Shown here piece after piece: positions 25,160 to 59,084 of a DNA stretch of 64,000 nucleotides. The translations under genes and the position numbers were made by a program. The DNA is taken from IMG/VR virus record IMGVR_UViG_3300045988_074170; one strand, 5' to 3'. Each line of letters opens with the position of its first letter. Position 1 is the first letter of the stretch. The notes beneath the pieces are model-generated. The model did not search any database, had not been told where the DNA came from, and saw only the letters and a list, made by a program, of their open reading frames with translations. This DNA comes from a virus.

Positions 25160-25217
25160 TCTTTTAACGATGAAAGTGGCTGGTTCTTTACGCCAGCCAC
25201 CCCTGTTCAACTTTCTG

Positions 25218-26003: not shown

Positions 26004-27623
26004 CTACTTTTTATTTGGTTCATCATTTGCGGACATAGCACAAGACGTATTCAGGAACTGAATAGCGACTGAAACAGAGTTTTCCAGGGACACTCTTGAC
26101 ACTTTCGCAGGGTCAATGATTCCTGCCTCAAACATATCTTCTATCTTCTCAGTAACAGGGTTGAAGCCTTTCCACCACATCGGGTCGTCGTTGTTTGTCA
26201 AGTCGACTTCGATACGGGTTGCGTTCACAGAAGCATTTTCACACAACTGATTGAACGGAGCCATCAACGCTTGAGCCACTACATTCCAACCGATAATGAA
26301 GTCAGGATGCTCCTCGTGAAGTGAAGGCATATTGCGTAGGTGGTCTGACGCTCTCAACTGTACCGTACCACCTCCGGGAACGTATCCCTCTTCCAACGCT
26401 GCCCGAGTTGCGGCAATAGCGTCGTCAACACGGTCTTTTCGCTCCTTCATCTCTACCTCACTGTCCGCACCTACATAAACGACGGCTGCTCCTCCTGTAA
26501 GTTTCGAAATACGTTCACGATACTTCTCTTGGTCGTAAGAGTTCGTATTCTCCTCCATTAGATGTTTAATAGCCTCTACTCTGGTATTTATATCGGCTTC
26601 CGTACCAACACCTCCTACGAGGATTGTACGATTAGTAGAAACGACTGTGCGTTCACACTCGCCCAGCCAGTCTGTACCGAGTTGGTCAAGCGGACGTCCA
26701 AACTCATCGCCTACCACCTTTGCACCTACCTTAACAGACAAGTCCTCTATCATGTCCTTCTGGATTTGACCATATCCGGGAGCCTTTACGAAACAGGCTT
26801 TTAACCCGTTCTGCTGCTGAATGTTTGTCACAAGAAACTTGATAACGTCATTAGACGCATTAGGAGCAACGATAAGAACGCTGCGTTTCGCTGAATAAAC
26901 TGTCTGAATGATAGGAAGGATTTCCTGGGGATAGTTGATGTTCTGTCCGAAGATGAGAATGTACGGCTTATCAAGCACGCATTCTATACGCTCTGGGTCT
27001 GTAACGAAATACGGGTTCACCAAGCCTTTCTCCCACTGAAAACCTGTGGTCACTTCAACTGTGGTTTCATTTCCCTTGCTGCTTTCCTCAACTGTAATCA
27101 CTCCGTCGTTTCCTACCTTTCCGATAGCCTCCGAAATGATACAACCAACCTCCAAATCACCGTTTGCGCTGATAGTGGCAATCTGATTTACACGGTCGAA
27201 CTCTGTCTCACCAATTTCCTTCGCCATCGCTTTGATGAACGAAACGGCTTCTGAACGAGCAGCCTCCATTCCTTCCTTGAAACGCTGTGGATTCTTGACA
27301 TTAGGAAGAACATTCATTCCCTCTTTAATGAGCGCACGGGTGAGGATTGTGGCTGTGGTTGTACCGTCACCAGCCTCGTCACAGGTCTTTGCCGCAACAG
27401 TCTTAACGAGCGTTGCTCCCATACGTTTCATCGGGTCGTCGGTATCGTACGCACGGGCAACAGTTACACCATCTTTCGTGATGTGAGGAATGCCATACCC
27501 TTTGTCAATGATTACTGAATGTCCCTTCGGACCGAGAGTAGAAGATACTGCATTAGCGAGTTCATCAATTCCTTCGAAAAGAGCCTCTTGAGCAGATTTG
27601 TTGAATAAAATCTTTACATTCAT
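26004..27623 (-). CDS. groEL: GroEL-type (group I) chaperonin
   Basis: Motifs are AAKTCDEAGDGTTTATILTRAL (ATP site) and GGAAVVYVGADSEVEMKERKDRVDDAIAATRAALEEGYVPGGG. There is no GGM tail. Confidence 0.9.
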   Translation of the reverse strand: MNVKILFNKSAQEALFEGIDELANAVSSTLGPKGHSVIIDKGYGIPHITKDGVTVARAYDTDDPMKRMGATLVKTVAAKTCDEAGDGTTTATILTRALIKEGMNVLPNVKNPQRFKEGMEAARSEAVSFIKAMAKEIGETEFDRVNQIATISANGDLEVGCIISEAIGKVGNDGVITVEESSKGNETTVEVTTGFQWEKGLVNPYFVTDPERIECVLDKPYILIFGQNINYPQEILPIIQTVYSAKRSVLIVAPNASNDVIKFLVTNIQQQNGLKACFVKAPGYGQIQKDMIEDLSVKVGAKVVGDEFGRPLDQLGTDWLGECERTVVSTNRTILVGGVGTEADINTRVEAIKHLMEENTNSYDQEKYRERISKLTGGAAVVYVGADSEVEMKERKDRVDDAIAATRAALEEGYVPGGGTVQLRASDHLRNMPSLHEEHPDFIIGWNVVAQALMAPFNQLCENASVNATRIEVDLTNNDDPMWWKGFNPVTEKIEDMFEAGIIDPAKVSRVSLENSVSVAIQFLNTSCAMSANDEPNKK

Positions 27624-27702: not shown

Positions 27703-30700
27703 TTATTTCTTCGGTCGCTGTGGTATTTCGCACGCACCTCCGGCACAGGCTGTCGCAATTTCACTTCCAGCCTGTTTAAGCGGTTCTTCCCATACGATGT
27801 TATCGTAGGAAACAGGCTTCATTCGACAGATGGCTTGCCACTTGTGGTATGCGTTCACGTGCTTCAAACAGTACGATGTCTTCTGACGGTCGCCTTCCAT
27901 ATACTTGTCGGCAAACGAATTGAAGCGACGCACCCAATCCAACCGTCTTTCAACACGTCGTTTCAGGTAGTCAATAACACAGTTCACGTCTGAGAAACAG
28001 ATACCGTCAATGTCAACGAGGAAACGTCCGTCCTTAATATTCTCAACAACGAAGTCGGCTATCTGTTTGTCGTTGATTGTAAGCAACTGTGGAGCCAACC
28101 CCATCGCTGCGTTACAGGCTTCCCAAACATCTTTGAACACGTCATTCGCATCAACGATAAGACCGCTCGACAGAATTGCTCCTGCTCCGTAGCGTTCCGC
28201 CAACTCAACCTCGTCAAGAACTTCGGTGTACGGTGCTTGAGGATAGTCCAAATCACCGAATGATGATAACAGGCTGATACCACCAAACTGGTCACGATGT
28301 TCCCACAGGAACTCCCGTACTTCATCCCATTCATCTGGGCGAACTGTACAGGTATTTGACACGTTCATTCGAAGTTTCGGATTGTCAAGTGTAGAAGGAT
28401 GAGTCAGGTTCGTACCGTACTCAATCCAGTTCTGTTTCGTTAAGAGAACATATTTCAGGAATTCAATTGCTGTCAGGTTCTGTTTCAGCAACGCTCCTTC
28501 GGGAAGTGTAACAGGGAAAGCGATAACCTTTTCACGGTCAGGAGCCCAAACGCTCGCTTCTACCATATCCGGATTGACACGTTCCCACTCTTGAACAGCC
28601 TGTTCAGTATCCGCAGCCTGAATGTGACGAATGTAGTGACGAGCGTGTCCGGCAGTTATTCCTGACAAGGTTCCAAGGAGTTGTGAACTGTTCCCAGACG
28701 GCTTCACAACTGTACACCGTGCAGCCTCGTTGATACCTATCATTCGTGCAATCTTCTTGTTGGTCTCTACAACGATTTGAGCACCACGCTTCTGTACTTC
28801 TGGGTCGAACAGGATAGCAGGGTTCTCACAGAGACCCGTAATGCCCACACCGATAAGAGCGTCCCGCTCGGCTATCAACTGTGACCATTTCTCAAGCACA
28901 CGGAAATTCGTGTAACCAGCCTGCAGGGTACAGATAACAGAAGCAGCTTCGCACGCATCGTAGAAGTCTTGCTCGCTCTGAACTTTTCCCCCGTTGATTT
29001 CCGCTAAATTACAGAATCCCCATCCTGAATGCGTAACTCCATCTTCGTCTTTAATTTGAGGGAACATTCCCACCTCGCCACAATTATGAACTAAAACTCC
29101 AGTACAATTTTCATAATTTTCATCACCTTTTGTAATGATATAAAAATTATGATTATCTTCCACAGTTAAATCATAAACAGGCTCTACACCACAAGCGACA
29201 ACAGATTCAACCCTAACAGAAATTTCTATTGATTCCTTCTCAGGCTTGATATATTCCCTTTCGTCAACTTCTTCAATATAAGGTTGTCCAGAAAGAACTA
29301 AATTTCTTAAGTTTTCAATCTTTCCACCAAACCTATTCTTGGACAAATTTTTAGGAAAACGACTGTCTAATTTATTGCAATTTGCACAAGAAATATATCC
29401 ACCGTTCTCATGAACTTTCTTGGCAATTTCATATAACTCTTTATTTGTTAACCCCTTGTATCTTCCGTTCTTTTCAAGAGTTGTAGAAATTGACATATTA
29501 TGAGAATATGCTTTCACATCTTTTCTTCTAAACATCGGGTTATTTTCACCTAATCTTTCAGAAGCTGATTTTTCTTGATGTTTCCCCCTTTCAAGCAAAT
29601 GTAAGTTTTCAATAAAATCTCCTTTGCCATTTTCAATGTGGTCAATATCAAACCCTTCAGGAACATCCCCATTAAAATATTCCCAAATCATTCGGTATTG
29701 ACGCGCATACCCATTACTTCGAGAACAAATTGTCCGATATTTTTCTTTTATCGTAAAGAAAGGTTGAAGTTCTTTCCCAACACACTTACATGCTTCCAAA
29801 TAAGTTCCATCTTTCAAAGCAAGTTTATGATTTGGGGTGCACTTAAATTTCGTTCCGTCCGAAAGTGTTACTTCAACAACTTCCTTATCACCTGTTTTAA
29901 ATGCTATTGCCTTTTTAATTTCAGGTTTCCATCTTTTCGAATTGCGTCCAGCTTTGTCAACCCACTTTCCAGAATACACGGGAAATTCTTTTACATTTTC
30001 CGCCAATTCTTTTATAGAAACGGCATTCCTTCCATCAGCAACCGCCACAAGAGTTTCCCCCGTAAAACAAGGATTATATACAAAGTCTGTCTTATCAATG
30101 AACACGAATCCAGGCTCCCCATACAATTTCGTGAATTCAAATATTGAATCAAATGTTTCCTTTGGGGTATCCGGAAGAATAGCAGCGGAATTATTACTTC
30201 GACAAAGTTCTGGCATCGTTGAAATCCAATTTCCTGTCTTACAAGAAGCCATTTCAGCATCATCAGCATCAAAGATACTTATCATCGCTGAACGTCGAAC
30301 TCCCCCTGTAACGACGCTATTCGCACAGATACAGATAAGATAGTGAAGTTCAAACGGTCTCAATTTCCGTCCTTTAATACGTGTAATGATGTGGTGGCAC
30401 TTCTCTATCGCCTGACGCAACGGTTCGGGTCCAGGAGCCTTGAATCCCCCTCTGATGTATGCACCTTTCGGGCGGATTGCTGAATAGTCAAACTCAATGT
30501 CCGCACCACCATAATAGTAAGCGGTCATCATCTTACCAACAGCCTCTGCCCACCCCTCAATCGTATCAGGTATCACGAATTTCTCAGCCTGTTTCGAGTT
30601 ATCAAATCCTTTGGGCACAGGAAGTCTATCCGTGTGAATGTGCTGAACGCTGTAACCTGTCCCAGCACCACAGAGCAACAGATACATGATTTCCTCGAAT

Positions 30701-31032
30701 ACGCATACACGGTCGACATAGGTAGAGGAACAGTTATAGAAGCGAGCGTGTTTCTCTAACATCAATTCCCCACCATACTGTAATGCACGCTGGGCTCCCA
30801 ATACACGCTGCTCAGAATACAGGCTGTATGCATGAGCAAACATCTTACTGAACTCAGCCTCATCCTCAGGCTTTAATCTACCGGAATAGCGTTTCAAGTG
30901 CATATCCATTACTCTGTTCACGGCATCCTGCCATGTTTCCTTTTTCCCATCATGGGTTTGGGAATACTTGCTCAAAAACACGTACTCCCCGACCACTGGT
31001 CGACTGTCCTTTTCAATCATGTTTCTCTTCAA
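27703..31032 (-). CDS. nrdJ: class II (adenosylcobalamin-type) ribonucleotide reductase interrupted by an intein
   Basis: The exteins join as ...DFVYNP + CGEVGMF, restoring the NPCGE catalytic motif. The C-terminal redox pair is CAGGAC. Confidence 0.85.
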   Translation of the reverse strand: MKRNMIEKDSRPVVGEYVFLSKYSQTHDGKKETWQDAVNRVMDMHLKRYSGRLKPEDEAEFSKMFAHAYSLYSEQRVLGAQRALQYGGELMLEKHARFYNCSSTYVDRVCVFEEIMYLLLCGAGTGYSVQHIHTDRLPVPKGFDNSKQAEKFVIPDTIEGWAEAVGKMMTAYYYGGADIEFDYSAIRPKGAYIRGGFKAPGPEPLRQAIEKCHHIITRIKGRKLRPFELHYLICICANSVVTGGVRRSAMISIFDADDAEMASCKTGNWISTMPELCRSNNSAAILPDTPKETFDSIFEFTKLYGEPGFVFIDKTDFVYNPCFTGETLVAVADGRNAVSIKELAENVKEFPVYSGKWVDKAGRNSKRWKPEIKKAIAFKTGDKEVVEVTLSDGTKFKCTPNHKLALKDGTYLEACKCVGKELQPFFTIKEKYRTICSRSNGYARQYRMIWEYFNGDVPEGFDIDHIENGKGDFIENLHLLERGKHQEKSASERLGENNPMFRRKDVKAYSHNMSISTTLEKNGRYKGLTNKELYEIAKKVHENGGYISCANCNKLDSRFPKNLSKNRFGGKIENLRNLVLSGQPYIEEVDEREYIKPEKESIEISVRVESVVACGVEPVYDLTVEDNHNFYIITKGDENYENCTGVLVHNCGEVGMFPQIKDEDGVTHSGWGFCNLAEINGGKVQSEQDFYDACEAASVICTLQAGYTNFRVLEKWSQLIAERDALIGVGITGLCENPAILFDPEVQKRGAQIVVETNKKIARMIGINEAARCTVVKPSGNSSQLLGTLSGITAGHARHYIRHIQAADTEQAVQEWERVNPDMVEASVWAPDREKVIAFPVTLPEGALLKQNLTAIEFLKYVLLTKQNWIEYGTNLTHPSTLDNPKLRMNVSNTCTVRPDEWDEVREFLWEHRDQFGGISLLSSFGDLDYPQAPYTEVLDEVELAERYGAGAILSSGLIVDANDVFKDVWEACNAAMGLAPQLLTINDKQIADFVVENIKDGRFLVDIDGICFSDVNCVIDYLKRRVERRLDWVRRFNSFADKYMEGDRQKTSYCLKHVNAYHKWQAICRMKPVSYDNIVWEEPLKQAGSEIATACAGGACEIPQRPKK
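29083..30069 (-). mobile_element. intein (329 aa) with an HNH-type endonuclease insert, in the RNR active-site motif
   Basis: The intein starts CFTGETLVAVADG (Cys codon 30069..30067) and ends GVLVHN (Asn codon 29085..29083). The +1 residue is Cys. Internally it carries DIDHIENGKGDFIENLHLLERGKH. Confidence 0.85.
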
Positions 31033-31474: not shown

Positions 31475-33979
31475 TTAACAATATATTAAACTCTTTCTCG
31501 CACGTGTTATAGCCACGAATTGGAGACACTTTTCAGCATATAAAGCCAGTTCAGTTGTCGCATACTTACTTGGTAGGAGTTCCGGCTGAAGAAAGAATAT
31601 TCTGTCTGCTTCCAACCCCTTACTTTTGTGAATGGTCGACAGCGTGATACCACGACTGGCGTTCTCTACAAATATATCGTAAATCCGGGAGCGCACGGTT
31701 TCCAAATCACCGAAATATTCGTACAGGCTCAACAAAACATTCACTTTCTCATTCAACTTGTCGTATGCCTCACACTTGGTTGGACTCTTAACTCCCTTCT
31801 TCTGCAACTTACTTATCATGTTCTCAAGAACCTGTTCAAGCCCCCATACGTCCTCGACGCTGTCTATGAGCGATACAAGTTCATCACCGAATTCCTTCCC
31901 AAGAATTGTGCACTTCTTCCCCTGCCGTAACAGGGTGATGAAAGCGTCAACCAACGGAGCGTTATTCCGGCACAGAATGAAATCCCCTTCCTGAGCGTCC
32001 TTAAATGTACCGTCCCCAACGAACCCTTTAACCGCTCCAGGAGCAGCCACTATACCATCGGGGAACACTTTACAGGCTTCGGCAACTATATCCTGGGCAC
32101 AACGATATGTCATTGACAGAGGCAACGTCACTGTATTAGGAGCATTCTTGATAGCCTGTAACGAGTCAAGATTACTCCCCATGAATGAATAGATTGACTG
32201 CTTTTCATCCCCTACTGCTATCAGGCGACCTCGTGGCGTCTTGCACATCTTCACGACCTCGAACTGTAATGGGCTGATATCCTGACACTCGTCAAGCATA
32301 ACGACATTGTACTGTTTGAAGTCTTCCCGATGAACGTATTGAGTCGCATAATATAACATATCGGTAAAGTCCATAGGGAGTTTCCCTCCCCCACCTTTTA
32401 GGAAGTAATTATCGGCAATCCTTTTGTTAAGCATACGGAGCTCTATTGCTCTCTTAGCGAGTTCTTCGTCAGCGTCCTCACCGTACCTCTCCCCCAATGC
32501 TATTATTGCCTCTATATCGTCTGGTACGAGGTTAAATCTCATGAGGTCATAGAGCCTACATACTTTCATTATTATTCCGGGAATGCGCTTCGGGTGAACC
32601 CCTTTGAATTCCATCTTCTCTTTCGCCAGATTGAAATTCTTTGAATCACTCAGGCTGAAATTCAGGCTGAATGCTTTGCACAGGGACGACAGCGCACAGG
32701 AGTGAAGTGTCTGAGCCTTTACAGTTCTTGGAAGCCTCTGCCCAAGTTCTTCAGCTATTGACTTATTGAAAGCCAAGAAGATTGAACTCTTTATAGGAGG
32801 AGTCATCTCCGCTAACTTGCACAGGGTGAATGTCTTCCCAGAATTATGAGTAATAGTAAAATCCCCTAATAGATATCTATTATCCCCATCAACAGTAAAA
32901 CCAAACCACGCACCCTTTCCAATAGGTTTTAAAGAAAATCCAGTGTGAAGCACATCTTTTATTTGTTTTCTCTTACTTGCCTTTTTTCGTGAAAGAATGT
33001 TAGGAATAATCTCTGTATGACCCGAAATCCCTATTCTAAAATAATATGCTTCAAAATTTCTTGATTTAATTGTTGAACGTTTCCATTTATAAGACGGATA
33101 TAACCCTAATGAACGAACTAAGTAAACAATTCCCTCTCCCAAGGACTCCCATTTCGTTGAAATTGAAAAACAACATCCATCACTTTTCTTATATCCATCG
33201 CCATCAATAAGTCCAGCAAGAAGTCTTAATCTGTTCTCCACTGAATTAATCAGATAATTTTGAGGAATGAAAACATTTCCCAATTCATCAATGCATTTCT
33301 TAAATTCCTCCCTAAAAATATTTTTAGAACCGCACCCCACAAATCTTACCTGAACACAATTTTCACTATCATCTTTTATTTTGCATTCAATTCCTTTTGG
33401 AAGAGGATAAGATAAAAGATAATCAATAATATCTGAATCCTGTTTACATATACTAAAATATGGATTTCCTTTGTGCTTCGTTCCTTCTGCAAGCCATAAC
33501 CCTAACAAATAAGGGTCAATAGGGATGGTTTCCTCCTTAAATTCGACACCTGTTCTGACAAGTTTTAAATGACCAATTTCGCCATTATTTTTCTGAAATT
33601 TTAAAATTTCTTTAATATGTTTGTCAACTATATCAGAAGTCTTTGCCGAATTATATAGCCTCATTGAACGAGTAATATATTGGTCATGAACAGTAAAAAT
33701 ATGCTCATCATTACATATCCATTTTTCACCCTTTTTCGGAGAAACTTCATACAAATTAGAAATTCCGCTATCAATTTTCAAAACATTTCTTGGGCAAGAA
33801 TCTGGTCCCATTAATACGTCTCCAACGCAAATTTCTTGAGACAATTTTGTTGAACCATCAAACATTAAAACCTTGACATCTTTTCCAAGACATCCAGCCG
33901 TTGCGCTGACGAAAATGTTCCTGTTCGTACTTTGGTATTCGTCAACTATCGCCTGTTTATATTCGTCCAATTTCGCCAT
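31475..33979 (-). CDS. UvrD/PcrA-family (SF1) helicase interrupted by an intein in the Walker A motif
   Basis: The exteins join as SATAG + SGKTFTL. Other motifs are VVMLDECQDISPLQ, TIHKSKGLEADRIF and VAITRARKSL. Confidence 0.85.
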   Translation of the reverse strand: MAKLDEYKQAIVDEYQSTNRNIFVSATAGCLGKDVKVLMFDGSTKLSQEICVGDVLMGPDSCPRNVLKIDSGISNLYEVSPKKGEKWICNDEHIFTVHDQYITRSMRLYNSAKTSDIVDKHIKEILKFQKNNGEIGHLKLVRTGVEFKEETIPIDPYLLGLWLAEGTKHKGNPYFSICKQDSDIIDYLLSYPLPKGIECKIKDDSENCVQVRFVGCGSKNIFREEFKKCIDELGNVFIPQNYLINSVENRLRLLAGLIDGDGYKKSDGCCFSISTKWESLGEGIVYLVRSLGLYPSYKWKRSTIKSRNFEAYYFRIGISGHTEIIPNILSRKKASKRKQIKDVLHTGFSLKPIGKGAWFGFTVDGDNRYLLGDFTITHNSGKTFTLCKLAEMTPPIKSSIFLAFNKSIAEELGQRLPRTVKAQTLHSCALSSLCKAFSLNFSLSDSKNFNLAKEKMEFKGVHPKRIPGIIMKVCRLYDLMRFNLVPDDIEAIIALGERYGEDADEELAKRAIELRMLNKRIADNYFLKGGGGKLPMDFTDMLYYATQYVHREDFKQYNVVMLDECQDISPLQFEVVKMCKTPRGRLIAVGDEKQSIYSFMGSNLDSLQAIKNAPNTVTLPLSMTYRCAQDIVAEACKVFPDGIVAAPGAVKGFVGDGTFKDAQEGDFILCRNNAPLVDAFITLLRQGKKCTILGKEFGDELVSLIDSVEDVWGLEQVLENMISKLQKKGVKSPTKCEAYDKLNEKVNVLLSLYEYFGDLETVRSRIYDIFVENASRGITLSTIHKSKGLEADRIFFLQPELLPSKYATTELALYAEKCLQFVAITRARKSLIYC
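32843..33892 (-). mobile_element. intein (350 aa) with a LAGLIDADG homing endonuclease domain
   Basis: The intein starts CLGKDVKVLMFDG (Cys codon 33892..33890) and ends FTITHN (Asn codon 32845..32843). The +1 residue is Ser. The LAGLIDADG blocks are LLGLWLAEGT and LLAGLIDGDGY. Confidence 0.85.
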
Positions 33980-34920: not shown

Positions 34921-36579
34921 TCATTTCAGATGTTTCTGTAAGAATTTCCTTGCCAACAGTTCGTTCTCGCTTTGCCCCTTGTTCACCACCCCTGTTATAA
35001 GGCTCTTATCCTTAACGGTTTCCCTCATTTCGACGTCTATTGTGTCTGGTGATAATAGGTAGGTGATATTTATACTATTCTTTTGCCCCATTCGCTCAAG
35101 ACGACTGTTCGTTTGTTCCAGGTCGGTTGACTTGTCAGGAAGTTCAATGTAGAAGAGGTTCGAGCAGTTGTCCTGAAGACCGTCTGTACCTGTGCCAGCC
35201 GACTGAATGTTCGCAAAGAGCAACCGATGTTTCCTCTGTGAAAACTCGTTCACAATTTGTTGTTTCTTATCAGCCGAGACTCCACCCTGTATTATCGGAG
35301 CCTTAAAGTATTTCGCCAGTTCCTGGAGCGGTTCACGGTGCACACCGAAGACCACCAACTGTTCGTCTTCATTCGCCTCTAACCAATCCTTGATGTATGA
35401 TTGCATGAACGGCAACTTCCCTTTCACCGACAGGGATTTCAACGTGTTAATCATTACAAGATGAGGAGCGTTCACGGCATTGTTTGCCTTCTCGATATCT
35501 ATCTTCTCGAGATACGCTAACAGGTCTGACTCGGCTCGCCTGTACTCCTTGAGATTCACAATAGGAACGTCAACTGTTTGCTCTACCAACGGTGGGAGCT
35601 CGGTGAGGACGTCTCGCTTATTTCGTCTAATATAGCCTCCCATTCGTAACAGTTCATGAAGTTCCTCAAGATTACTGAACCCACTAAAATCGAAGCCATA
35701 TGGCGTTTGCTTCGCATTGCAATACCTGTACTTAAAGTCGAGGTCGGCTCCGAATATATCTTCGAACCGTCTAATTATCTTGAACGGCTGTATCAGGTCA
35801 GACGGCTTATTTTGAATCAATGTACCTGTCAATCCCCATACGTGCTGAATTCGTTTAGCAATCTTCTTTGCCATCTTTGTGCGAAGAGCCTTTTCACTCT
35901 TCAGGAAGTGTATCTCATCCATAGCACAGGATGCCCAATACTTTCGTAACAGTTCCTTGAACTTTGCAGTCGGTTTCTCCATGTTACGTTCTCCGAGCAC
36001 ATCATAGTTGATGATGACAACATCGTTGTTCCACACTTCGGTGTCAAACTTTCGTTTGCGCTCAATCACACCTATCTTTCGATTGGGGTTCCATTTCTCC
36101 CACTCCTTCTTCCAGTTGTACTTCACAGACGCTGGAGTAATAATTAGAGTTGGGAAAGCATCCATTAACTCAATTGTAATAATCGTTTGACCTGTCTTAC
36201 CAAGACCGCACCCGTCCCCATTGATACAGTTCCCATGATTAATCATATACGCAACCCCCTCACACTGATAGGGACGAGGCACACGTTTCAGCCCAATTTC
36301 CTTACAGGCTTGAGCGACTTCCTCTGGAGTTATCACTTCTGGAGGCTCTTGATAAGCTATAACATTCGGAGAGGGAACGTAGTTCATCCCCTCTTTAAAT
36401 CCGTTCGCTTCCAGCCACTTCTTTAGTGGAGCCAATGTCGTTAATTGAATTGGGACGTACCATTCCCTGTTCTGAGGATTGTATCCCGCACCAGCAAACT
36501 TCTTTACAGCCGTAACCAATTCTGGGTCATACCTAAACCCGACGTAAATATAATTTCCGTCACTGTACCAATATCTCAT
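34921..36579 (-). CDS. SNF2-family (SF2) helicase/translocase
   Basis: Motifs are PRPYQCEGVAYM, DGCGLGKTGQTI, AMDEIHFLKS and SAGTGTDGLQ. Confidence 0.8.
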   Translation of the reverse strand: MRYWYSDGNYIYVGFRYDPELVTAVKKFAGAGYNPQNREWYVPIQLTTLAPLKKWLEANGFKEGMNYVPSPNVIAYQEPPEVITPEEVAQACKEIGLKRVPRPYQCEGVAYMINHGNCINGDGCGLGKTGQTIITIELMDAFPTLIITPASVKYNWKKEWEKWNPNRKIGVIERKRKFDTEVWNNDVVIINYDVLGERNMEKPTAKFKELLRKYWASCAMDEIHFLKSEKALRTKMAKKIAKRIQHVWGLTGTLIQNKPSDLIQPFKIIRRFEDIFGADLDFKYRYCNAKQTPYGFDFSGFSNLEELHELLRMGGYIRRNKRDVLTELPPLVEQTVDVPIVNLKEYRRAESDLLAYLEKIDIEKANNAVNAPHLVMINTLKSLSVKGKLPFMQSYIKDWLEANEDEQLVVFGVHREPLQELAKYFKAPIIQGGVSADKKQQIVNEFSQRKHRLLFANIQSAGTGTDGLQDNCSNLFYIELPDKSTDLEQTNSRLERMGQKNSINITYLLSPDTIDVEMRETVKDKSLITGVVNKGQSENELLARKFLQKHLK

Positions 36580-38533
36580 TCTCGAAATCTTTTCTCGAAA
36601 TTATTTTAATTCCATATTCTGACGCTTTTTTCATTTTAGATGACGAACTATTCATGTCGGCTGTTACCAACAGATATAAATCTTTTGATACTCCGTTTGA
36701 TACCGTATATCCAAACTGAGGAAGCATCTTTTCAAGTTCTTTATCCCGAAAACCTGTTAAACATACCTTTTTGAACCCCCCTTCCGGAGTTTCAACTTTC
36801 GGAGACTGAACATAAGTAATAACGATTCTTTTATCCTTTCCCCTCGAAAGATACGTTTTTAACCCCTTTACGAAAGTCAAAGCCAGCACCTCACCTATTC
36901 CCGGAATGAGTTCACATTCGTGCTTTAAAGCGACCGCAGACTCCGCAGTGAGCGCATAACTGTTTGGGTCTCGAAGCCTCTCAACCGTTTCCTCATTCAA
37001 GCCGTCTAAGATTTTCTGGCAGGTCGCCTCGGCAATCTTTCCGTCAAATACATTTATGGCTGTTAGGTAACGAGCCAACGGTACTCCGGCAAGAACCTTT
37101 TCAATCTGACTTGAAACGGTCTTCCCCTTTGACTTCCCTAACAGGTTCTGGAACTCCGCAACGTGTGACTCAAGAATTGTGTCTATCGTCTTATAGCCGT
37201 GTCCATACAAACGACGTATCGTAGGCTCTTCAAACTGTTCGCAACCCATCGTGCGGAAGAAATACACCATACCAGAAATTACTCTTTCCTTGCACGACTC
37301 ATTTGAGCATACAAGGTCAACGTGCGTTTCGTTCCATTTGAGCGGTTCACCACAGGACGGACAAATAACAAGGTCGTCCATCATATCGGTGTACGCATTC
37401 TCGTTATACTCAATCGTCTTCAAGTGTTTAGGGATAACGTCTCCACCACGTGTTACTTCGATGAACGCTCCCTCACAGATATGCTGGTCAATCAGGTAGG
37501 CTGCATTATACGCTGTGGCTCGTGATACGGTTGCTCCGTTAATCTCAACAGGTTCAATGATGATTACAGGGTTCAGAACACCTGTCTTCCCTATTCCCTT
37601 TTCTATACTGATGACCTTTGTCTGATACACGTCGCACCACTCTTCCTTCTTGAACGCAATAGCATAGGCGGGATTTCCGTTAGGAAGCCGTCCGAGTTGT
37701 TCGCGGACGCTTTCCTCATCGACTTCTATCACCACGCCATCAATCTTGTATTCAGCGTCAAACCTGTCATGAAGTTCCTCATCAAGCAACAGGTTCATTT
37801 CTTCATCGTCGAGTTCCATTATCTCTTCAATCAAGAAACTGACATACGGAGTAACATTATGGAACGTTCTTTTCAATTCTTCGAGAACGCTTGACTTGTC
37901 GCCTGTAAGGTCAGAGCCATAACGCACGAAGTCCACGTTTGCCAAGAAGCGGTTGTTCCAGCCGTCCGGAGAGTTGAATATTCCGGCAACCATATTACGA
38001 GCGTTCTTATAGGCGAAGTCGGCTTGGTTGTCCTTGAGGTGGGCAAAGGTCTTCTTTTTAATGATAGCCTCGCCCCACGTATGCATGAGGTGTGGCTCCG
38101 GATGCTCGCCCTCACCATTGAACATACGGCCGAAGTGTTTCGTTGACAACTGTCCTTCTACACCATCACCACGAGTCCACGCTCTCTTATCGTCTTCATC
38201 AACGACAAGGCTTATTCCGTCAAATTTAGGAGTGGCGACAATCTCCTTACAACCTGCCGCAAGCATCTTCTGTAACCATTTGCGGAAGTCCTTGATTGTC
38301 TTGATTTTTTCGAGGCTGTACATAGGGACAGGCAACGGCTCCATACGGTCGATGGCTTCCTCTACGATACCTTTCTTGAAAAACTCATCCTCAGGACTGT
38401 TCTCCCTGAGAGTTTCGACCATGTGGTCATACTCAACATCTGACACTTGAGGATTGCCCTCGCGATAAGCCTTATTCAGAGCGATAAGTTCTTCTCTCAG
38501 GCTGTTAATCTTTTCTTGTTTCATCTTTGCCAT
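36560..38533 (-). CDS. ligA: NAD-dependent DNA ligase
   Basis: The adenylation motif is EYKIDGVVIEV. The zinc finger is CPSCGEPLKW...CSNESC. HhH and BRCT-like regions occupy the C-terminal part. Confidence 0.9.
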   Translation of the reverse strand: MAKMKQEKINSLREELIALNKAYREGNPQVSDVEYDHMVETLRENSPEDEFFKKGIVEEAIDRMEPLPVPMYSLEKIKTIKDFRKWLQKMLAAGCKEIVATPKFDGISLVVDEDDKRAWTRGDGVEGQLSTKHFGRMFNGEGEHPEPHLMHTWGEAIIKKKTFAHLKDNQADFAYKNARNMVAGIFNSPDGWNNRFLANVDFVRYGSDLTGDKSSVLEELKRTFHNVTPYVSFLIEEIMELDDEEMNLLLDEELHDRFDAEYKIDGVVIEVDEESVREQLGRLPNGNPAYAIAFKKEEWCDVYQTKVISIEKGIGKTGVLNPVIIIEPVEINGATVSRATAYNAAYLIDQHICEGAFIEVTRGGDVIPKHLKTIEYNENAYTDMMDDLVICPSCGEPLKWNETHVDLVCSNESCKERVISGMVYFFRTMGCEQFEEPTIRRLYGHGYKTIDTILESHVAEFQNLLGKSKGKTVSSQIEKVLAGVPLARYLTAINVFDGKIAEATCQKILDGLNEETVERLRDPNSYALTAESAVALKHECELIPGIGEVLALTFVKGLKTYLSRGKDKRIVITYVQSPKVETPEGGFKKVCLTGFRDKELEKMLPQFGYTVSNGVSKDLYLLVTADMNSSSSKMKKASEYGIKIISRKDFENEILVQ

Positions 38534-38559: not shown

Positions 38560-38592
38560 CTTTAATAAAAACAGGGGGAACGAATCCCCTGT
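38560..38592 (-). terminator. intrinsic terminator upstream of the ligase gene
   Basis: Stem acagggg/cccctgt at 38571..38592. The sense strand continues TTTTTATTAAAG. Confidence 0.55.
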
Positions 38593-38683: not shown

Positions 38684-39004
38684 CTATCTTAACATTGTAA
38701 TGAGCAACTTCTGTATGGTCGGCTTTGCCTGACTTCCCAAATTTACAAATGACTGTGATTCTTTCGCCTTCACCATTATAGGCAGAGAACTTAGTATTGT
38801 CTCACCGTTATAGTGTTTTTCGTTTTCATTGATGAAAATTTCGTGACCCTGTACTTCAATGCCTGTAAGTTCAACATCAGCATATTCAGAAACGTATTCT
38901 CTCTTAGTTCTCTTTGTCGGCTTTCCGTTACGCATAATGGGTACATCTTGAAATTTATCACCAACAAACAATTTAGCAACGATTGTATTACCTGTTCTTT
39001 TCAT
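38684..39004 (-). CDS. hypothetical protein (106 aa)
   Basis: ORF downstream of promoter 39033..39063. Confidence 0.55.
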   Translation of the reverse strand: MKRTGNTIVAKLFVGDKFQDVPIMRNGKPTKRTKREYVSEYADVELTGIEVQGHEIFINENEKHYNGETILSSLPIMVKAKESQSFVNLGSQAKPTIQKLLITMLR

Positions 39005-39032
39005 AATTCCTTGTTTTTTAATTTTGACACTA

Positions 39033-39063
39033 CAAAGGTAGTGGAATCTGATGATATTCCAAA
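39033..39063 (-). promoter_or_regulatory. Bacteroidota-type promoter (TTTG-N19-TACCTTTG)
   Basis: -33 at 39063..39060; -7 at 39040..39033. Confidence 0.7.
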
Positions 39064-39081: not shown

Positions 39082-39312
39082 TTAATATTTTTCAAATTCT
39101 TCCGCTGTTAAACTTAAACAGCCAACCCACGCACGAGTTTCGCTCTCCGTGTGAGCTTCAATACGTTCTATAATTTTACCGCCTTTAGACTTTACCCGTA
39201 ATCTCGGATATTTTGTATAATCATAAGCGATTTCGTCAATTTCATCTACAAGAAATAGAGGTTGACCTCCATTCAATTTCTTTTGTACTTCGTCTCTTGA
39301 TGACTTTTTCAT
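39082..39312 (-). CDS. small protein (76 aa) coupled to the RelA/SpoT-like gene
   Basis: ORF with an ATGA overlap to 39309..40007. Confidence 0.5.
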   Translation of the reverse strand: MKKSSRDEVQKKLNGGQPLFLVDEIDEIAYDYTKYPRLRVKSKGGKIIERIEAHTESETRAWVGCLSLTAEEFEKY

Positions 39313-40007
39313 AACTTAATATTTCTCACTTCGTTATAATACTTTTCACTTTCCTTAATTAGAACTACTGCCTCACCGCTTGTTTTCGGTAACACACGTA
39401 TTCTTTCATAAATTTCATGACCACGTCCCGGAGCTACTCCTGACTTCCTACATTTTTCAAACAGTTCCTCGCCTAACAAAGTTTTCGAAATTTCGGGTTT
39501 TTCCTTACCGAAAATCATTTGAGGGGTGTTTACCTGTATTTCACCAACAAGACCGTTGCCAAACTCTATATTTAGAATATGACCTGAATATCCAGCAAAG
39601 TTTTCAGGAGTCTGAACCTTATGTCTAACAACCTTAAACTCACCTTTCAGCTCAAAAAGAATTTCATCCAATTTAGATGCTTCAACAATGAACGTGTTTC
39701 TAATTAAGTCCTTCAGCTTTGAAACAGAAGTTCCCTCAAGTAAAATTTTTCGCTTAACACTCTCAACTGATTTTAAACTAACAGACGTAACTCGTATCCC
39801 AAACTTATTCGCAAAACCATAGGAAGCCTTCTGAAAAGAATTTACATTCGGAATAACCTTTTGGCTGAAATAATTCTTAATCTCGACAACCTCGTCAACC
39901 TTTTGAACGCCATATCTTTGTCCAACTCTGTGTAAACGACGATTTTCAGGTGTGTCCTTATACACACCTGAACGAGACTTTAATAGTTGAAATTCAATTA
40001 AGTTCAT
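39309..40007 (-). CDS. RelA/SpoT-like nucleotidyltransferase (small alarmone synthetase-like)
   Basis: SLKSVESVKRKI, LKDLIRNTFIV and GYSGHILNIEFGNGLVGEIQVNTPQM match the synthetase-domain pattern (RxKxxxS, DxxR, GY..H, EIQxxT). Confidence 0.6.
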   Translation of the reverse strand: MNLIEFQLLKSRSGVYKDTPENRRLHRVGQRYGVQKVDEVVEIKNYFSQKVIPNVNSFQKASYGFANKFGIRVTSVSLKSVESVKRKILLEGTSVSKLKDLIRNTFIVEASKLDEILFELKGEFKVVRHKVQTPENFAGYSGHILNIEFGNGLVGEIQVNTPQMIFGKEKPEISKTLLGEELFEKCRKSGVAPGRGHEIYERIRVLPKTSGEAVVLIKESEKYYNEVRNIKL

Positions 40008-40416
40008 GATTTAAAATTGAAAGAGCAACAGAATATTTCTCACGATTATACACCTTTCCTCTATTGGGGTCAGTATTATCAGCAATATCATATTTCTTAA
40101 CATTAATCGCCAAACAGTTTTTACTGCCCCTAATTTTTCGAATGTAATCAAAATAGGGAACGCTTTTATCGTGATTTAATAATTCCAATGCTTGAATAAT
40201 ACAATCGTTATTTGTCACCTCTCGTTTTATATCCTCAACCGTATAATGAGTGTCCTCAAGAACATCATGTAGCAACGCAACAATCTTTTCATCGTCAGTG
40301 AGTGCCATATAAGACACTCTTACAGGGTGTAAGAAATATTGCACACCGCTTTTATCAACTTGTCCCTCATGGGCTTTTTGAGCGAACTGTAATGCTTTAT
40401 AAACTTCTTTTTTCAT
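39994..40416 (-). CDS. HD-domain (p)ppGpp-hydrolase-like protein (small alarmone hydrolase type; start trimmed)
   Basis: ALQFAQKAHEGQVDKSGVQYFLHPVRVSYMAL...IVALLHDVLEDT is the SpoT/Mesh1 hydrolase signature. The ATG is at 40416. Confidence 0.75.
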   Translation of the reverse strand: MKKEVYKALQFAQKAHEGQVDKSGVQYFLHPVRVSYMALTDDEKIVALLHDVLEDTHYTVEDIKREVTNNDCIIQALELLNHDKSVPYFDYIRKIRGSKNCLAINVKKYDIADNTDPNRGKVYNREKYSVALSILNHELN

Positions 40417-40439
40417 ACACTTGTTTTTATTTGACGCTA

Positions 40440-40470
40440 CAAATGTAGTCAAAGAAATTGGAAGAACAAA
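40440..40470 (-). promoter_or_regulatory. Bacteroidota-type promoter (TTTG-N19-TACATTTG)
   Basis: -33 at 40470..40467; -7 at 40447..40440. Confidence 0.7.
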
Positions 40471-40518
40471 GAAATTTCAGGAATATTCGACGGGATTCCG
40501 AATATTCCTTTAAAATTT

Positions 40519-41133
40519 TTACTCTTCCATCATGTTATGATATAGGTCAAGGCGAATTTTCGCATAAGCTGCTTCGACATTTGTAAATGCCCTTTGATTG
40601 TTTGCACCCTGTTCATTGTATATTTCGGATTCAATAACTTTTGCAACCTGCTCAACCCATTTTGGATTTGTATAAGAAGACAATTTTTTGCCATGGTAGG
40701 AAAAACAGTCGAATTTTGAATTTCGGTCTTCATGAAGATTTGTTAAAAGCTGTCGAATTTTCTTTGCTGTGGCTTCTTTGTCCGAAATATGATTCTCTTC
40801 CCGAACCTTCTTAATTATCCGGCAAACCCTTTCAATTGCAAGGTCGAAAGCCATATTAGTAACAGTCTTAATTCGTAGCTGCGTTTCCGGAACTAGGCTC
40901 TCGGATATAACACTAAGCTGGATATTTTGATTCCTTGTTTCTGTCAGTAGTTCCTTAAAAGTTTCTCGCTGGGAATTCATAGTGTCGTTTATCACCTTCA
41001 TGAACCAACGGAAGAAAGTTACCCACATCAGTGCTGACAGCACCAAAAAGAATCCGGCTGTAATAGCCATCATTCCGAAATCTCCAATGCTCTTTCCTGT
41101 CTCGATAGCAGGATTAATCATGTCTGTACCCAT
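40519..41133 (-). CDS. membrane-anchored protein (204 aa)
   Basis: The N-terminal TM segment is FGMMAITAGFFLVLSALMWVTFF. Confidence 0.55.
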   Translation of the reverse strand: MGTDMINPAIETGKSIGDFGMMAITAGFFLVLSALMWVTFFRWFMKVINDTMNSQRETFKELLTETRNQNIQLSVISESLVPETQLRIKTVTNMAFDLAIERVCRIIKKVREENHISDKEATAKKIRQLLTNLHEDRNSKFDCFSYHGKKLSSYTNPKWVEQVAKVIESEIYNEQGANNQRAFTNVEAAYAKIRLDLYHNMMEE

Positions 41134-53584: not shown

Positions 53585-54703
53585 TTATCCGATGAACAGT
53601 TCGTTCAGTAACGGGTTCCGGAACTCTACCAACTGTTTTGTCCAATAACGGAAGATAACCTTTGCCCAGTCAGAGAACATCTCATCTTCAAACTTTTCAA
53701 TATCCGCACGCAATAACTCGAAGTCCTGTTCTGTACGGTTTTCACTGTTACGACAGTTTTCTTCGAACTGGCTCAACTGAGCGATAAGCGCATCGAACTC
53801 CTCTAAAGTTTTAAACGTCGTCTTATAGGAAAAGTTTACTCCGGAAGGATACGAATTTGGGTCTCTTTTAGCGATTTCTTCAGCCAACGGAATGAAGTCC
53901 TTATAGACATGAAGATTGTCTGCCTTGTGGTAATATTTCCCGACAGGCACGCCCACTATCGCTGCGACGTACTCCTGCATCAATGTAAAGTTGAACACGT
54001 TCACCGCACTGAACCCCCAGATAAGGTCATTCGAACGGATATCCACGTAACAGTTCATCTTTCCATTCACTATCATGAAGTGGATTGAACGGGTACACGG
54101 TGTATCCTTTGTGAGGAGCAATGGAGCCTTTTCCCCGTCCTCTTCATTCTGATTGAAGTTGTCAGAGATAGGGTCGTGAATTGTGATAACCGCTTCACGG
54201 GTATCGATGTCCTGCTTGAACTTTTCAATGACGAACCGTAATTGGTCAGTCACGTTCTGGTACAGTCCGGGAGCCTTCAATTTTGAATAACGACCGTTTT
54301 CGTCTGCTTTACCGTTCTTATACTGTCGCGGAAGTAACTTTCCGGACAATGTTACCATCGAATCAAAATTGTCCCCGTAACGACGTATTCTGGGTCCATA
54401 TCCCGCTCTCATGAACTTCCCATCATCTGAAAAGTTTACAAGGTTCTTCACGTAGGAAGCAGGCATCTCAAGACTGTTATCCCCACGAGCCAACCACAGG
54501 GACTCAATCCACCCCAATGTTTTGTTCCATTTACGCTCCGGAACACGAACATAGCGGTCGGTCGGATTAGTTATCTCAATGAGGACGGCTCCAGGGAACT
54601 CACGACATTCGAACCCTCTTCGGGTAACGTCAATCCCTTTATCCATCAATTCCTTACAAAGTAGCACCAGCGCACTACTCAAATTTTCTGCTTGAAAATA
54701 CAT
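53585..54703 (-). CDS. thymidylate-synthase-fold enzyme, uracil-specific (ThyA or dUMP hydroxymethylase)
   Basis: DTPCTRSIHFMIVNGKMNCYVDIRSNDLIWGFSAVNVFNFTLMQEY...ADNLHVY aligns with E. coli PPCHAFFQFYV...QRSCDVFLGLPFNIASY...GDTHLY. The Asn equivalent to N177 is retained rather than replaced by Asp, which points to dUMP rather than dCMP as substrate. Confidence 0.75.
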   Translation of the reverse strand: MYFQAENLSSALVLLCKELMDKGIDVTRRGFECREFPGAVLIEITNPTDRYVRVPERKWNKTLGWIESLWLARGDNSLEMPASYVKNLVNFSDDGKFMRAGYGPRIRRYGDNFDSMVTLSGKLLPRQYKNGKADENGRYSKLKAPGLYQNVTDQLRFVIEKFKQDIDTREAVITIHDPISDNFNQNEEDGEKAPLLLTKDTPCTRSIHFMIVNGKMNCYVDIRSNDLIWGFSAVNVFNFTLMQEYVAAIVGVPVGKYYHKADNLHVYKDFIPLAEEIAKRDPNSYPSGVNFSYKTTFKTLEEFDALIAQLSQFEENCRNSENRTEQDFELLRADIEKFEDEMFSDWAKVIFRYWTKQLVEFRNPLLNELFIG

Positions 54704-54717
54704 AAGTCTTTCTTGAT

Positions 54718-58385: not shown

Positions 58386-59084
58386 TCACTTTCTTTTGAA
58401 AGGCAGGACACTCGTGTCAGCATTACTGTCCTCAACCTTACTTGTTTGGACTCGGCTGTTAGTCGTTGAACCTTCAAGAACATTACTGTTCATGCTTGGC
58501 TGCTGATTGCCCACTTCTGGGTTTTCCAGCAATTCACCCTGTTTTAAGACGCCAATTATTCTGCCTGTTTTATTGTCTCTAATAATTGTCTTTTCAAAAT
58601 TATGAATTGTCGTATGCTCTCCGCGAGTTAAAACTTCAAGATTTTCTAATCGATTGTCAGTCTTATCTTCATTTATATGATGAACATCGTAACAATCTTT
58701 CAAAACTATCCAGCCACATATATTTTCAAACAGTTCTTTAGAAAACTTGTCATAGTTTCTTTCAATGATTAATCTGTGTTTCAATATATAAGTTGCCTTC
58801 CCTCTATCTCGAATTTTACCACCTTTAGGATGTCCAGGAACATTTTCCATTATATAACCTGCTGAATTTATCTTTTCATCATGCTTATAGGAACTATTCA
58901 ACTCCCCTGTCAATCCAAACTGATGGTTCCCCTCACCCGTCATATATCTTGAACGTAAAATCTTTCCACATTCTTTTGAGCATGAAACTCCATGAATTTG
59001 ACGTTTAAGTCTTGACGGCTTTACCCACATTTTAACTCCACAAATTGAACATTGACAATTTGGTTCTCTATCAAATTTTCCCAT
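58386..59084 (-). mobile_element. HNH homing endonuclease inserted within the dUTPase gene
   Basis: HHINEDKTDNRLENLEVLTRGEHTTIH is preceded by an N-terminal Cys-rich region (CQCSICG...CSKECG). The ATG is at 59084; the ORF-track start at 59147 is a TTG. Confidence 0.8.

Follow-up and report, generated by a model that had tools for sequence, protein, structure and literature searches.

Toxins that make (p)ppApp have been characterised, together with two kinds of immunity protein, in prophages of Bacteroides caccae, Streptococcus pneumoniae, Mannheimia haemolytica and Pasteurella multocida (PMC10083569, PMC12226406). In these cassettes the toxin Apk2 is a synthetase that makes (p)ppApp from ATP and depletes ATP, a small protein with the Tis1 fold (BcTis1 or IapK) occludes the acceptor site, and the hydrolase Aph1 hydrolyses (p)ppApp, regenerating ATP and ADP (PMC10083569, PMC12226406). 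The Aph hydrolases are interchangeable between systems and cross-protect against non-cognate Apk toxins, a property described as 'universal' immunity (PMC12226406). In most other proteins that have an Apk domain it is joined to a delivery module, free-standing forms being a small minority (PMC12691689), and the biological role of phage polymorphic toxins is stated as an open question in the papers that describe Apk2 (PMC10083569, PMC12226406). Here we present a cassette of this kind, located at positions 39,082 to 40,416 of a viral DNA of 64,000 nucleotides (IMG/VR record IMGVR_UViG_3300045988_074170, the whole stretch being referred to as the window), the toxin of which carries a leader of 35 amino acids that is shared with unrelated toxins and with proteins encoded beside the portal gene of the same phage. 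Taken as a whole, the locus is best explained, with a probability of about 0.6, as a (p)ppApp toxin with double immunity that is leader-tagged for virion delivery. New here are a toxin architecture that lacks MuF and has a leader not described before, a hot spot for polymorphic toxins in a large gut phage that is probably virulent, and the occurrence of orphan hydrolases.

A predicted synthetase toxin with two predicted immunity proteins

The toxin is encoded by the middle of the three genes, apk (coordinates of all features are collected in Table 1). An earlier interpretation of this stretch made from the letters alone, which we refer to as the sequence-only reading, had assigned it to the RelA/SpoT synthetase fold, and this stands, since phmmer and Foldseek both place it within the RelA/SpoT homologue (RSH) fold and closest to Tas1, a (p)ppApp synthetase of the Pseudomonas aeruginosa type VI secretion system (T6SS). 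Residues 61-228 match the Tas1 toxin domain in a phmmer search against the PDB (6ox6_A, E 5.6e-24, 33% identity), in which no RSH protein other than Tas1 was matched. The AlphaFold2 model of the protein has a predicted local distance difference test (pLDDT) score of 85, residues 1-35 being disordered (pLDDT <50), and its top PDB neighbour is again Tas1 (6ox6_A, Foldseek E 1.7e-13, template modelling (TM) score 0.85), followed by the exported synthetase SaEAS (E 8e-6) and then by CapRel and the small alarmone synthetase (SAS) and Rel enzymes at ~1e-5 or weaker; CapRel is a distant fold match only (E ~1e-5, TM 0.4). The synthetase motifs to which the sequence-only reading had pointed (SLKSVESVKRKI, KDLIRNT, GYSGH and EIQVNT) are all present. 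The syn motifs are intact and comprise SLKSVESVKRK with the ATP-binding basic and serine residues, K99-D100-x-x-R103-N104-T105 with the magnesium-binding aspartate, G139-Y140-S-G142, E156-I-Q158 with the catalytic glutamate, and G196-H197-x-x-Y200, and the residues K99, D100, R103, N104, T105, G139, Y140, G142, E156, Q158, G196, H197 and Y200 are invariant among nine homologues. Recognition of the synthetase depends on the kind of search, the Pfam RelA_SpoT model staying below its cutoff (13 bits, E 0.13) and the sequence search of the PDB leading unambiguously to Tas1. NCBIfam has no match for the toxin or for the small 76-residue protein, and PADLOC has none for any of the three cassette proteins; family libraries alone would under-call the synthetase.

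No PAAR or Rhs domain was found in the toxin with Pfam and there is no T6SS context, the context being that of a phage. Pfam likewise gives no Phage_Mu_F match, and only 35 residues precede the toxin domain. An exhaustive search of representatives returned Apk-domain matches in 434 clusters at E <=1e-10. In most of the 150 representatives listed the domain is C-terminal in a much longer protein of up to ~1,470 amino acids, the rest having 130-350, and among the matches listed only a handful, with 230-260 residues, align over their full length to the window toxin. The large Apk proteins in Bacteroidota loci (IMG/VR, GTDB) are MuF fusions of 495-871 residues, and a GTDB scan showed that MuF-Apk2 prophages occur in Bacteroidales genomes. 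Judged by sequence and model, the window toxin is a Tas1/Apk-type adenosine 3'-pyrophosphokinase that very probably makes (p)ppApp.

The first gene of the cassette, aph, had been read as a SpoT/Mesh1-like HD hydrolase, with which the Pfam HD_4 match (29 bits, just above cutoff) and the match to PDB entry 7smg agree, the latter being the '(p)ppApp hydrolase' Aph1 of Bacteroides caccae (phmmer E 1.8e-22). The protein also matches phrog_990 (E 7e-32), and in NCBIfam only the N-terminal HD part of SpoT/RelA is matched. Its HEGQ, HP and LLHDVLEDT motifs are in place, and the residues of the HD metal site (H..HD..ED..DN), namely H16, H30, H51-D52, E55-D56 and D113-N114, align to Aph1, which at 143 residues is of nearly the same length as the 140 residues seen here. 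The adenine specificity of Aph1 has been ascribed to a signature of D24, R96, D116, R119, K133 and Y134 in Aph1 numbering (Ahmad et al., PMC10083569). Counterparts in the window hydrolase are D21, D116, R119 and K127-Y128, plus N114, and its R96 is aligned by phmmer, this last correspondence being alignment-dependent as the gap placement is ambiguous in MAFFT. All 12 Aph1 homologues assayed hydrolysed ppApp, and hydrolases with the Aph1 signature do not cleave (p)ppGpp (PMC10083569). From these similarities we predict that the protein is an Aph1-family hydrolase, specific for (p)ppApp, that provides enzymatic immunity.

The third protein has no sequence relative beyond its own small family, and its assignment comes from fold comparison. 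The top-ranked AlphaFold2 model (pLDDT 94) finds Tis1, the immunity partner of Tas1 in the same crystal structure, as its best match among 350,000 PDB chains (6ox6_B, Foldseek E 7.6e-3, probability 1.00, TM 0.61), the runner-up having an E of 0.27, which leaves Tis1 as the only credible PDB neighbour; the Tis1 chain in 6ox6_B likewise has 76 residues. A weak match to a PH domain (beta-spectrin, E 0.017) was dismissed, and the support for Tis1 is from fold comparison only. In the sister phages described below, the tis1-like gene always accompanies the leader-apk gene. The model predicts a Tis1/IapK-like structural immunity protein, which would bind the toxin and block its acceptor-nucleotide site. 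That the small coupled partner might be a neutraliser had been proposed before, in agreement with both the Tis1 fold match and the characterised systems (PMC10083569, PMC12226406).

The cassette is the known Apk-Tis1/IapK-Aph1 toxin/double-immunity system, described before in prophages, and from sequence and models together it is very likely to consist of a (p)ppApp toxin and two immunity proteins. The core of the sequence-only reading, a promoter-driven three-gene phage operon of an HD hydrolase, a toxic-type RelA/SpoT-fold synthetase and a small partner, holds, as does its suggestion that the synthetase is neutralised by both of these partners, which is what happens in the closest characterised systems (PMC10083569, PMC12226406). 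It recognised the parts and missed their identity as a described module, along with the leader and the hot spot. It was also too pessimistic in stating that the substrate cannot be inferred from the sequence, as three independent lines indirectly favour (p)ppApp over tRNA or (p)ppGpp: Tas1 is the nearest relative by sequence and by structure, the small open reading frame (ORF) has a predicted Tis1 fold, and the hydrolase has most of the Aph1 signature. Tis1-type neutralisation is coupled specifically to toxic SAS (toxSAS) enzymes that make (pp)pApp, the tRNA-targeting toxins using pZFD antitoxins (PMC11782079).

Organisation of the cassette

The three minus-strand ORFs are present exactly as the sequence-only reading had placed them. 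The genes aph and apk overlap by 14 nt, and apk and the tis1-like gene by 4 nt (ATGA), which agrees with the translational coupling that had been suggested for this pair. The gene order from a single promoter is aph, apk and tis1-like, with an immunity gene first. A TTG at 40452 was rejected as the start of the hydrolase, being upstream of the -7 box and the allelic genes also encoding 140 residues. When the window genes are compared with the allelic cassettes of two related contigs (L003 and L004), the ratio of non-synonymous to synonymous divergence (dN/dS) is 0.07-0.15 at a dS of 0.5-1.0 for all three, with values of 0.08 for aph, 0.09 for apk and 0.14-0.15 for the tis1-like gene, and all three are under purifying selection.

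The -33/-7 consensus is characteristic of Bacteroides promoters, and the promoter that had been noticed at 40440..40470 matches this type. Its -7 box forms part of an extended 18-nt motif, TAnnTTTGTAGnGTCAAA, that occurs 10 times in the window against 0.24 occurrences expected by chance. Nine of the ten sites are on the coding (minus) strand, and they span window positions 4003-48273 (for example 15346-15363, 39023-39040 and 40430-40447). The motif amounts to the Bacteroides -7 box with a conserved 10-nt extension, a phage-specific promoter class. The head module of this phage (contig L026, 12002-21266) has no copy of it, and this promoter class probably marks one temporal gene class.

A mobile leader and a polymorphic-toxin hot spot

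Where a MuF or PAAR delivery domain is usual, the N-terminus of the toxin consists of the 35-residue leader KSRSGVYKDTPENRRLHRVGQRYG (the protein starting with MNLIEFQLLKSRSGVYKDTPENRRLHRVGQRYG), for which the consensus is M-x-L-x-E-x(3)-KSRSGVYKDTxENRRLHRVGQRYG. The leader begins L-x-E, which we take to be like the T4 prohead-protease sites. It has no family match in Pfam or PHROGs, and a tblastn search of GenBank with a leader-bearing N-terminus returned nothing. In the first homologue search ~60 proteins shared the leader only, at 70-96% identity over 10-25% of the query, and had unrelated C-termini; 76 of the 231 proteins retrieved up to that point have the motif, in nearly all cases at the N-terminus. 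The C-termini of the leader proteins scanned include Apk, Gln_amidase (PF15644, 'Papain fold toxin 1, glutamine deamidase') and Zeta_toxin (PF06414). In the Gln_amidase toxins the leader is followed by a KVNLKKYLS module and then by the toxin domain, such that they resemble a head protein (see below) with a toxin appended, and the Apk and Zeta toxins retain the leader only, without this module.

A search with a leader profile returned only stubs of 30-79 residues (P0232-P0266) with little beyond the leader, some of them on phage contigs of ~100-200 kb; these may be truncated gene calls, or orphan leaders left behind when cassettes were displaced. We also considered the leader as a miniaturised MuF core motif (GVYRSSxxNAxRLxRTE against GVYKDTxENRRLxRVG) and rejected this, hhalign aligning that stretch at an E of 0.18 and a probability of <1%.

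In every related contig of ~100 kb examined, the leader-toxins sit between a gene for a membrane protein of 204-216 residues (phrog_19698) and the NAD-ligase gene. Lineage A, which comprises the window and L003-L005, has the order aph, leader-apk, tis. Lineage B (L001, L006/L023 and L007) has leader-Gln_amidase, a small ORF, leader-apk, tis (82 residues) and aph; L002 and L025 have leader-Gln_amidase, an ORF of 78 residues, leader-Zeta and aph, and L021 and L022 have leader-Gln_amidase followed by aph. The Gln_amidase and Apk genes each have a small ORF on their 3' side, and the Zeta_toxin gene in L002 directly precedes aph. The locus has the architecture of a polymorphic toxin system, with a conserved N-terminal module, variable C-terminal toxins and downstream immunity genes.

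Cassettes of leader-Apk, Tis1-like protein and Aph recur in six further fetched loci of the two diverged lineages (L001 and L003-L007, the locus of the 231-residue homologue P0084 not being counted). In a comparison with L003, identity is 77-91% over the window cassette and 96-100% over its flanks, dS being ~0 for the neighbouring membrane-protein gene; with lower identity between near-identical flanks, the cassette is an island of divergence and recombination. An accessory gene in the hot spot, orf106, has its own copy of the promoter motif and no family match in Pfam or PHROGs. Gene and promoter are both missing from the allelic loci L003-L005, where unrelated sequence is found in their place, and orf106 is probably a small accessory-gene indel that is not part of the toxin-immunity unit.

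An Aph1-type hydrolase is kept beside the ligase gene without an Apk or Tis1-like gene in L002 (7670-8143), L021 (7194-7751), L022 (7383-7865) and L025 (3708-4238), and to judge from their sequences and setting these hydrolases look like orphan immunity genes. That Aph in L002 might be an antidote to the neighbouring Zeta toxin was rejected as unnecessary, with L021 and L022 keeping Aph in the absence of Zeta or Apk.

Leader-bearing proteins beside the portal gene

The phage head genes lie outside the window and were reached through contig L026, which is 99.98% identical to window positions 1-11491 and extends 9.8 kb beyond. Directly upstream of its portal gene are genes for proteins of 167, 80, 423 and 231 residues, in that order. 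The 167-residue protein contains two internal copies of the leader motif (GVYRDTPENRRLNRVGQAY and GVYADTPDNQRLGRVGQPY), and the 423-residue protein has an N-terminal leader (MVTLTERTIMKSRSGVYSDTAENRRKHRVGQKYG) together with a conserved C-terminal module, 'KVNLKKYLS...NFxxxxKSxRAELLY'. These leader-bearing head proteins have no relative in Pfam or PHROGs, and searches of the PDB gave nothing significant. The sister phages L016, L017, L019 and L020 have two leader-bearing ORFs in the corresponding position, and the genes for the portal, NUDIX and SU10-type major capsid proteins come next. The leader-bearing head genes occupy the position that MuF, the usual carrier of Apk2, has in other phages.

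The internal proteins of T-even phages form a hypervariable set that shares only a capsid-targeting sequence (CTS) (PMC3012670). With this precedent, and because unrelated toxins and portal-adjacent head proteins carry the same leader, the leader may be a CTS-like tag that mediates packaging into the virion and ejection from it, a proposal from sequence and analogy to which we give slightly less than an even chance.

Upstream of the head module, between divergent gene blocks, L026 has an intergenic region of ~850 bp (16080-16926) that contains TTGCGCTCAAAAGCCTTTTTATAAA twice as well as CGCTCA...GACTGT repeats, and that might have a regulatory function, serve as an origin of replication or be used for packaging.

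Comparison with known systems

The prophage cassettes of Apk2, BcTis1/IapK and Aph1 have the same three functions, are phage-borne and share the Bacteroidota gut setting, and the lineage-B sister phages even have their gene order of apk, tis and aph. Unlike them, the window cassette has the order aph, apk, tis, and its toxin lacks MuF and is 232 rather than ~500-570 residues long, the 35-residue leader standing instead. It is also located in the replication module, between the membrane-protein and ligase genes, and not beside the portal, and it is carried by a phage of ~105-108 kb that encodes a replisome of its own and was not found as a prophage. The Tas1 (Apk1)-Tis1 pair of the Pseudomonas aeruginosa T6SS (6OX6) supplies the best match to the toxin and the sole credible fold match to the small protein, whereas the window system has neither PAAR nor T6SS, has an additional enzymatic immunity, and is carried by a phage and not a bacterium. 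In the FaRel toxin-antitoxin (TA) system of Cellulomonas marina a synthetase making (pp)pApp is similarly encoded between a small alarmone hydrolase (SAH) antitoxin and the Tis1-like AT2faRel (PMC7229694, PMC11782079), but FaRel is of another RSH subfamily, its antitoxin has an extra pZFD, and it is a chromosomal TA system without a delivery or leader module.

MuF polymorphic toxins (Jamet et al. 2017, PMC5576092) and polyvalent proteins (PMC5512222) resemble the locus in having a phage-specific N-terminal module, variable toxins that include RelA-like ones, and small downstream immunity genes. They differ in that the N-terminal module here is short and has no Pfam or PHROG match and that the toxins are encoded away from the head genes; no MuF toxin was found in virulent phages (Jamet et al. 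2017, PMC5576092). With the internal proteins and Alt of T4, which have a CTS (PMC3012670), the leader proteins share the feature of a short N-terminal sequence as the sole common element of hypervariable small proteins in a large lytic-type phage. The two are not homologous in sequence, however, the packaging and processing of the leader are only proposed, and the T4 cargoes are mostly anti-restriction or ADP-ribosylating proteins without cognate immunity genes. The PhRel and PhRel2 proteins of mycobacteriophage Phrann and Bacillus phages are likewise small RSH-fold phage toxins with neutralising partners, but these pyrophosphorylate tRNA and have antitoxins of the pZFD/PAD1 type, whereas the window protein is much closer to Tas1 and has partners of the Tis1 and Aph1 types.

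Proposed mechanism and alternatives

In the mechanism that we propose, Apk would move pyrophosphate from ATP to the 3'-OH of ATP, ADP or AMP, producing (p)ppApp and draining the adenylate pool, the Tis1/IapK-like protein would cover the acceptor site of Apk by binding the enzyme stoichiometrically, and the Aph1-type HD hydrolase would turn (p)ppApp back into ATP or ADP. The leader would serve as a capsid-incorporation tag that brings Apk into virions, from which the toxin would be ejected along with the DNA into the next cell. Injected Apk would there cause a transient ATP collapse or host shut-off, limited or reversed by the immunity genes of the incoming or a resident genome, and Aph, orphan Aph included, would protect against toxins from related phages, from MuF-Apk2 prophages or from (p)ppApp systems of the host.

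Several points weigh against this explanation. The case for packaging is circumstantial, drawing on shared sequence and gene neighbourhood, and the similarity of the leader to the MuF core is not significant (hhalign E 0.18) and amounts to a lead. The cassette belongs to the replication and recombination module and its promoter class was not found in the head module, for which reasons its timing may differ from that of head assembly, and the leader could instead be mainly a recombination handle or a regulatory peptide. In the toxin, syn3 reads GYSGHI as against GYSGVN in Tas1; some Apk1-like exported enzymes make (p)ppGpp, or both nucleotides (PMC12691689), and residue swaps in Apk2 failed to change its substrate, there being no simple sequence rule (PMC12226406). 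Four of the five AlphaFold2 models of the small protein are poor, leaving one that is confident, and neither phmmer nor a 13-sequence profile searched against the PDB detected sequence similarity between this protein and Tis1.

An alternative possibility is that the module acts inside the infected cell only and is never packaged, as a controlled (p)ppApp 'brake' or a TA-like unit, with a leader that has some other role in regulation, instability or recombination. An Apk tuned by the Tis1-like protein and Aph might then remodel host nucleotide metabolism or transcription, or might poison the cell together with a co-infecting phage if immunity fails. The cassette does lie among replication and recombination genes and shares a promoter motif with them that was not found in the head module, its toxin gene is transcribed together with those of both immunity proteins, one of which leads the operon, and the order of hydrolase, synthetase and Tis1-like protein resembles that of the tricistronic FaRel system. 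A purely intracellular role nevertheless leaves unexplained why the same leader is found on unrelated toxins and portal-adjacent head proteins, and almost all other domains of the Apk type come with a delivery module (PMC12691689), and we regard this possibility as unlikely. The orphan hydrolases point in another direction. Since lineage-B sister phages keep Aph by the ligase gene with or without Apk-Tis (L002, L021, L022, L025), since Aph enzymes cross-protect against non-cognate Apk toxins, and since MuF-Apk2 prophages are found in Bacteroidales genomes, the hydrolase might be the selectively important part, as a counter-defence or orphan immunity against the (p)ppApp of host toxSAS abortive infection, of T6SS Apk1 effectors or of MuF-Apk2 toxins from prophages in residence and from competitor phages, and Apk-Tis an optional selfish add-on. 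In the lineage of the window, however, aph, apk and tis overlap, are coupled and are all under purifying selection as a unit, and such a role accounts for Aph but not for the upkeep of an intact toxin; we think it improbable as a replacement for virion delivery of the toxin, with which it is compatible rather than exclusive.

A different substrate is very improbable. A synthetase that makes (p)ppGpp, hijacking the stringent response, or that pyrophosphorylates the CCA end of tRNA as CapRel, FaRel2 and PhRel do, would be in keeping with the RSH fold, with the Foldseek matches to CapRel and the SAS enzymes at ~1e-5, with the (p)ppGpp specificity of some Apk1-like exported synthetases (PMC12691689) and with the existence of phage PhRel toxSAS enzymes. 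Against this, Tas1 leads the other matches by about eight orders of magnitude, the partner is of the Tis1 type and not the pZFD type of the tRNA-targeting toxSAS, the linked hydrolase has the signature of Aph1, members of which do not cleave (p)ppGpp, and all Apk2 toxin domains assayed made only (p)ppApp (PMC12226406). Decay of a prophage cassette into remnants without current function, to which the missing MuF domain and the sub-threshold Pfam RelA_SpoT score might seem to point, is effectively refuted by the selection analysis (dN/dS 0.07-0.15 at dS 0.5-1.0), and the coupled ORFs are intact, no catalytic motif varies, and cassettes recur in the six further loci of two diverged lineages.

Building on the delivery of a leader-tagged toxin, a broader proposal is that the leader would mark out a hitherto undescribed family of polymorphic toxins, independent of MuF, that are delivered by large and apparently virulent phages of gut Bacteroidota. 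It would act as a capsid-targeting and ejection signal borrowed from portal-adjacent head proteins, swappable toxins ((p)ppApp synthetase, glutamine deamidase and Zeta kinase) would be packed into virions and injected with the DNA, and the immunity genes, orphan Aph among them, would lead to kin discrimination between phages or to reversible host shut-off. We put this forward tentatively, thinking it rather more apt to fail than to hold. Such toxins have so far been tied to MuF fusions in temperate phages, and here the same toxin with double immunity is detached from MuF. If the leader is a packaging tag, its 35 residues give a compact and testable way into the question of whether phages inject toxins, and for what reason; 'kin discrimination' by toxin and immunity would then reach lytic gut phages as well, and the leader could be used for loading cargo into Bacteroides phage capsids. 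If it is not, what is left is a known module in a new genomic setting. The keeping of Aph without a cognate toxin suggests that (p)ppApp is a common weapon in the arena of Bacteroidales phages, their hosts and other phages.

The phage, its host and other genes

The cassette is located between genes for RuvC, SbcCD and RecA-like proteins and the ligase and helicase genes, in a block that also contains DnaB, primase and Pol III alpha. The Pol III alpha protein is ~40% identical to those of Tenacibaculum, Cellulophaga phiST-like and Chryseobacterium phages and ~31% identical to those of Bacteroides phages, and related contigs have lengths of 97-108 kb. A Bacteroidales host is indicated by the promoter consensus, by BACON-domain genes and by the human-gut metagenome sources of the few matching GenBank fragments. 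A near-identity DNA search of the locus against GenBank phages gave no match, and in a tblastn search with the toxin the one match was MT835636.1, an unannotated fecal contig. The 30 larger ORFs scanned, a set that leaves out ~25 minus-strand ORFs of 100-250 residues, include no integrase, and leader-Apk was not found in any of the 185,579 genomes of a GTDB scan. A virulent lifestyle would be in keeping with the full replisome and the several homing endonucleases, which do not prove it.

Table 1. Positions of the cassette, its flanking features and other genes (window coordinates unless a contig is named)
Feature	Position	Strand	Description
aph	39994..40416	minus	140 aa, ATG start
apk (toxin gene)	39309..40007	minus	232 aa
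tis1/iapK-like gene	39082..39312	minus	76 aa
Leader, toxin codons 1-35	39903..40007	minus	MNLIEFQLLKSRSGVYKDTPENRRLHRVGQRYGVQ; mobile N-terminal module, putative capsid-targeting or trafficking tag
Apk domain, residues ~36-232	39309..39902	minus	Tas1/Apk-type adenosine 3'-pyrophosphokinase, predicted (p)ppApp synthetase toxin
Bacteroides-type promoter of the cassette	40430..40470	minus	-33 TTTG 40467-40470, 19-nt spacer, -7 TAcaTTTG 40440-40447, then conserved TAGCGTCAAA
Terminator-like hairpin	40479..40509	minus	12-bp stem, T-rich tail; 3' of upstream membrane-protein gene, insulates cassette
Membrane-protein gene	40519..41133	minus	204 aa, phrog_19698; conserved; upstream boundary of variable locus
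Second promoter-motif copy	39023..39040	minus	TACCTTTGTAGTGTCAAA; exact motif match; drives orf106
orf106	38684..39004	minus	106 aa; accessory gene in hot spot, own promoter copy
Intrinsic terminator	38571..38592	minus	GC-rich stem and TTTTTAT; closes hot spot before ligase gene
NAD-dependent DNA ligase gene	36560..38533	minus	downstream boundary of variable locus
Leader-motif head-module genes	L026 16927-19028		~5.4-7.5 kb beyond window position 1, same phage
Thymidylate-synthase-like gene	53585-54703	minus	
5-Hydroxymethyldeoxyuridine (5-hmdU) DNA kinase gene	54718-55752	minus	HMUDK_hel, E 4.6e-75
GIY-YIG homing endonuclease	55727-56521	minus	PHROG-only call; interrupts hypermodification cluster
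Second kinase-family gene	56521-57258	minus	HMUD2, E 5.5e-24

Genes for thymidine hypermodification are found on the minus strand at 53585-57258, and from their sequences the phage DNA probably carries a hypermodified thymine. The replication module contains at least four free-standing homing endonucleases on the minus strand (24383-25210, 55727-56521, 58386-59147 and 59947-60657), three of them of the GIY-YIG type (two with NUMOD motifs) and one HNH, a set that is typical of large virulent phages. A protein of 834 residues (31475-33979, minus) combines an N-terminal ATPase like that of the terminase large subunit (PHROG matches to residues 3-294) with a C-terminal helicase, and a Terminase_6C nuclease domain is found in a separate protein of 197 residues (63350-63943, minus) that adjoins DnaB; this may mean a split terminase, or one recruited for another function. 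The same strand encodes a GroEL-type chaperonin (26004-27623, phrog_5725, E 1.5e-143) and an unusually long ribonucleotide reductase ORF of 1109 residues (27703-31032), the matches of which fall in two stretches and which may contain an intein.

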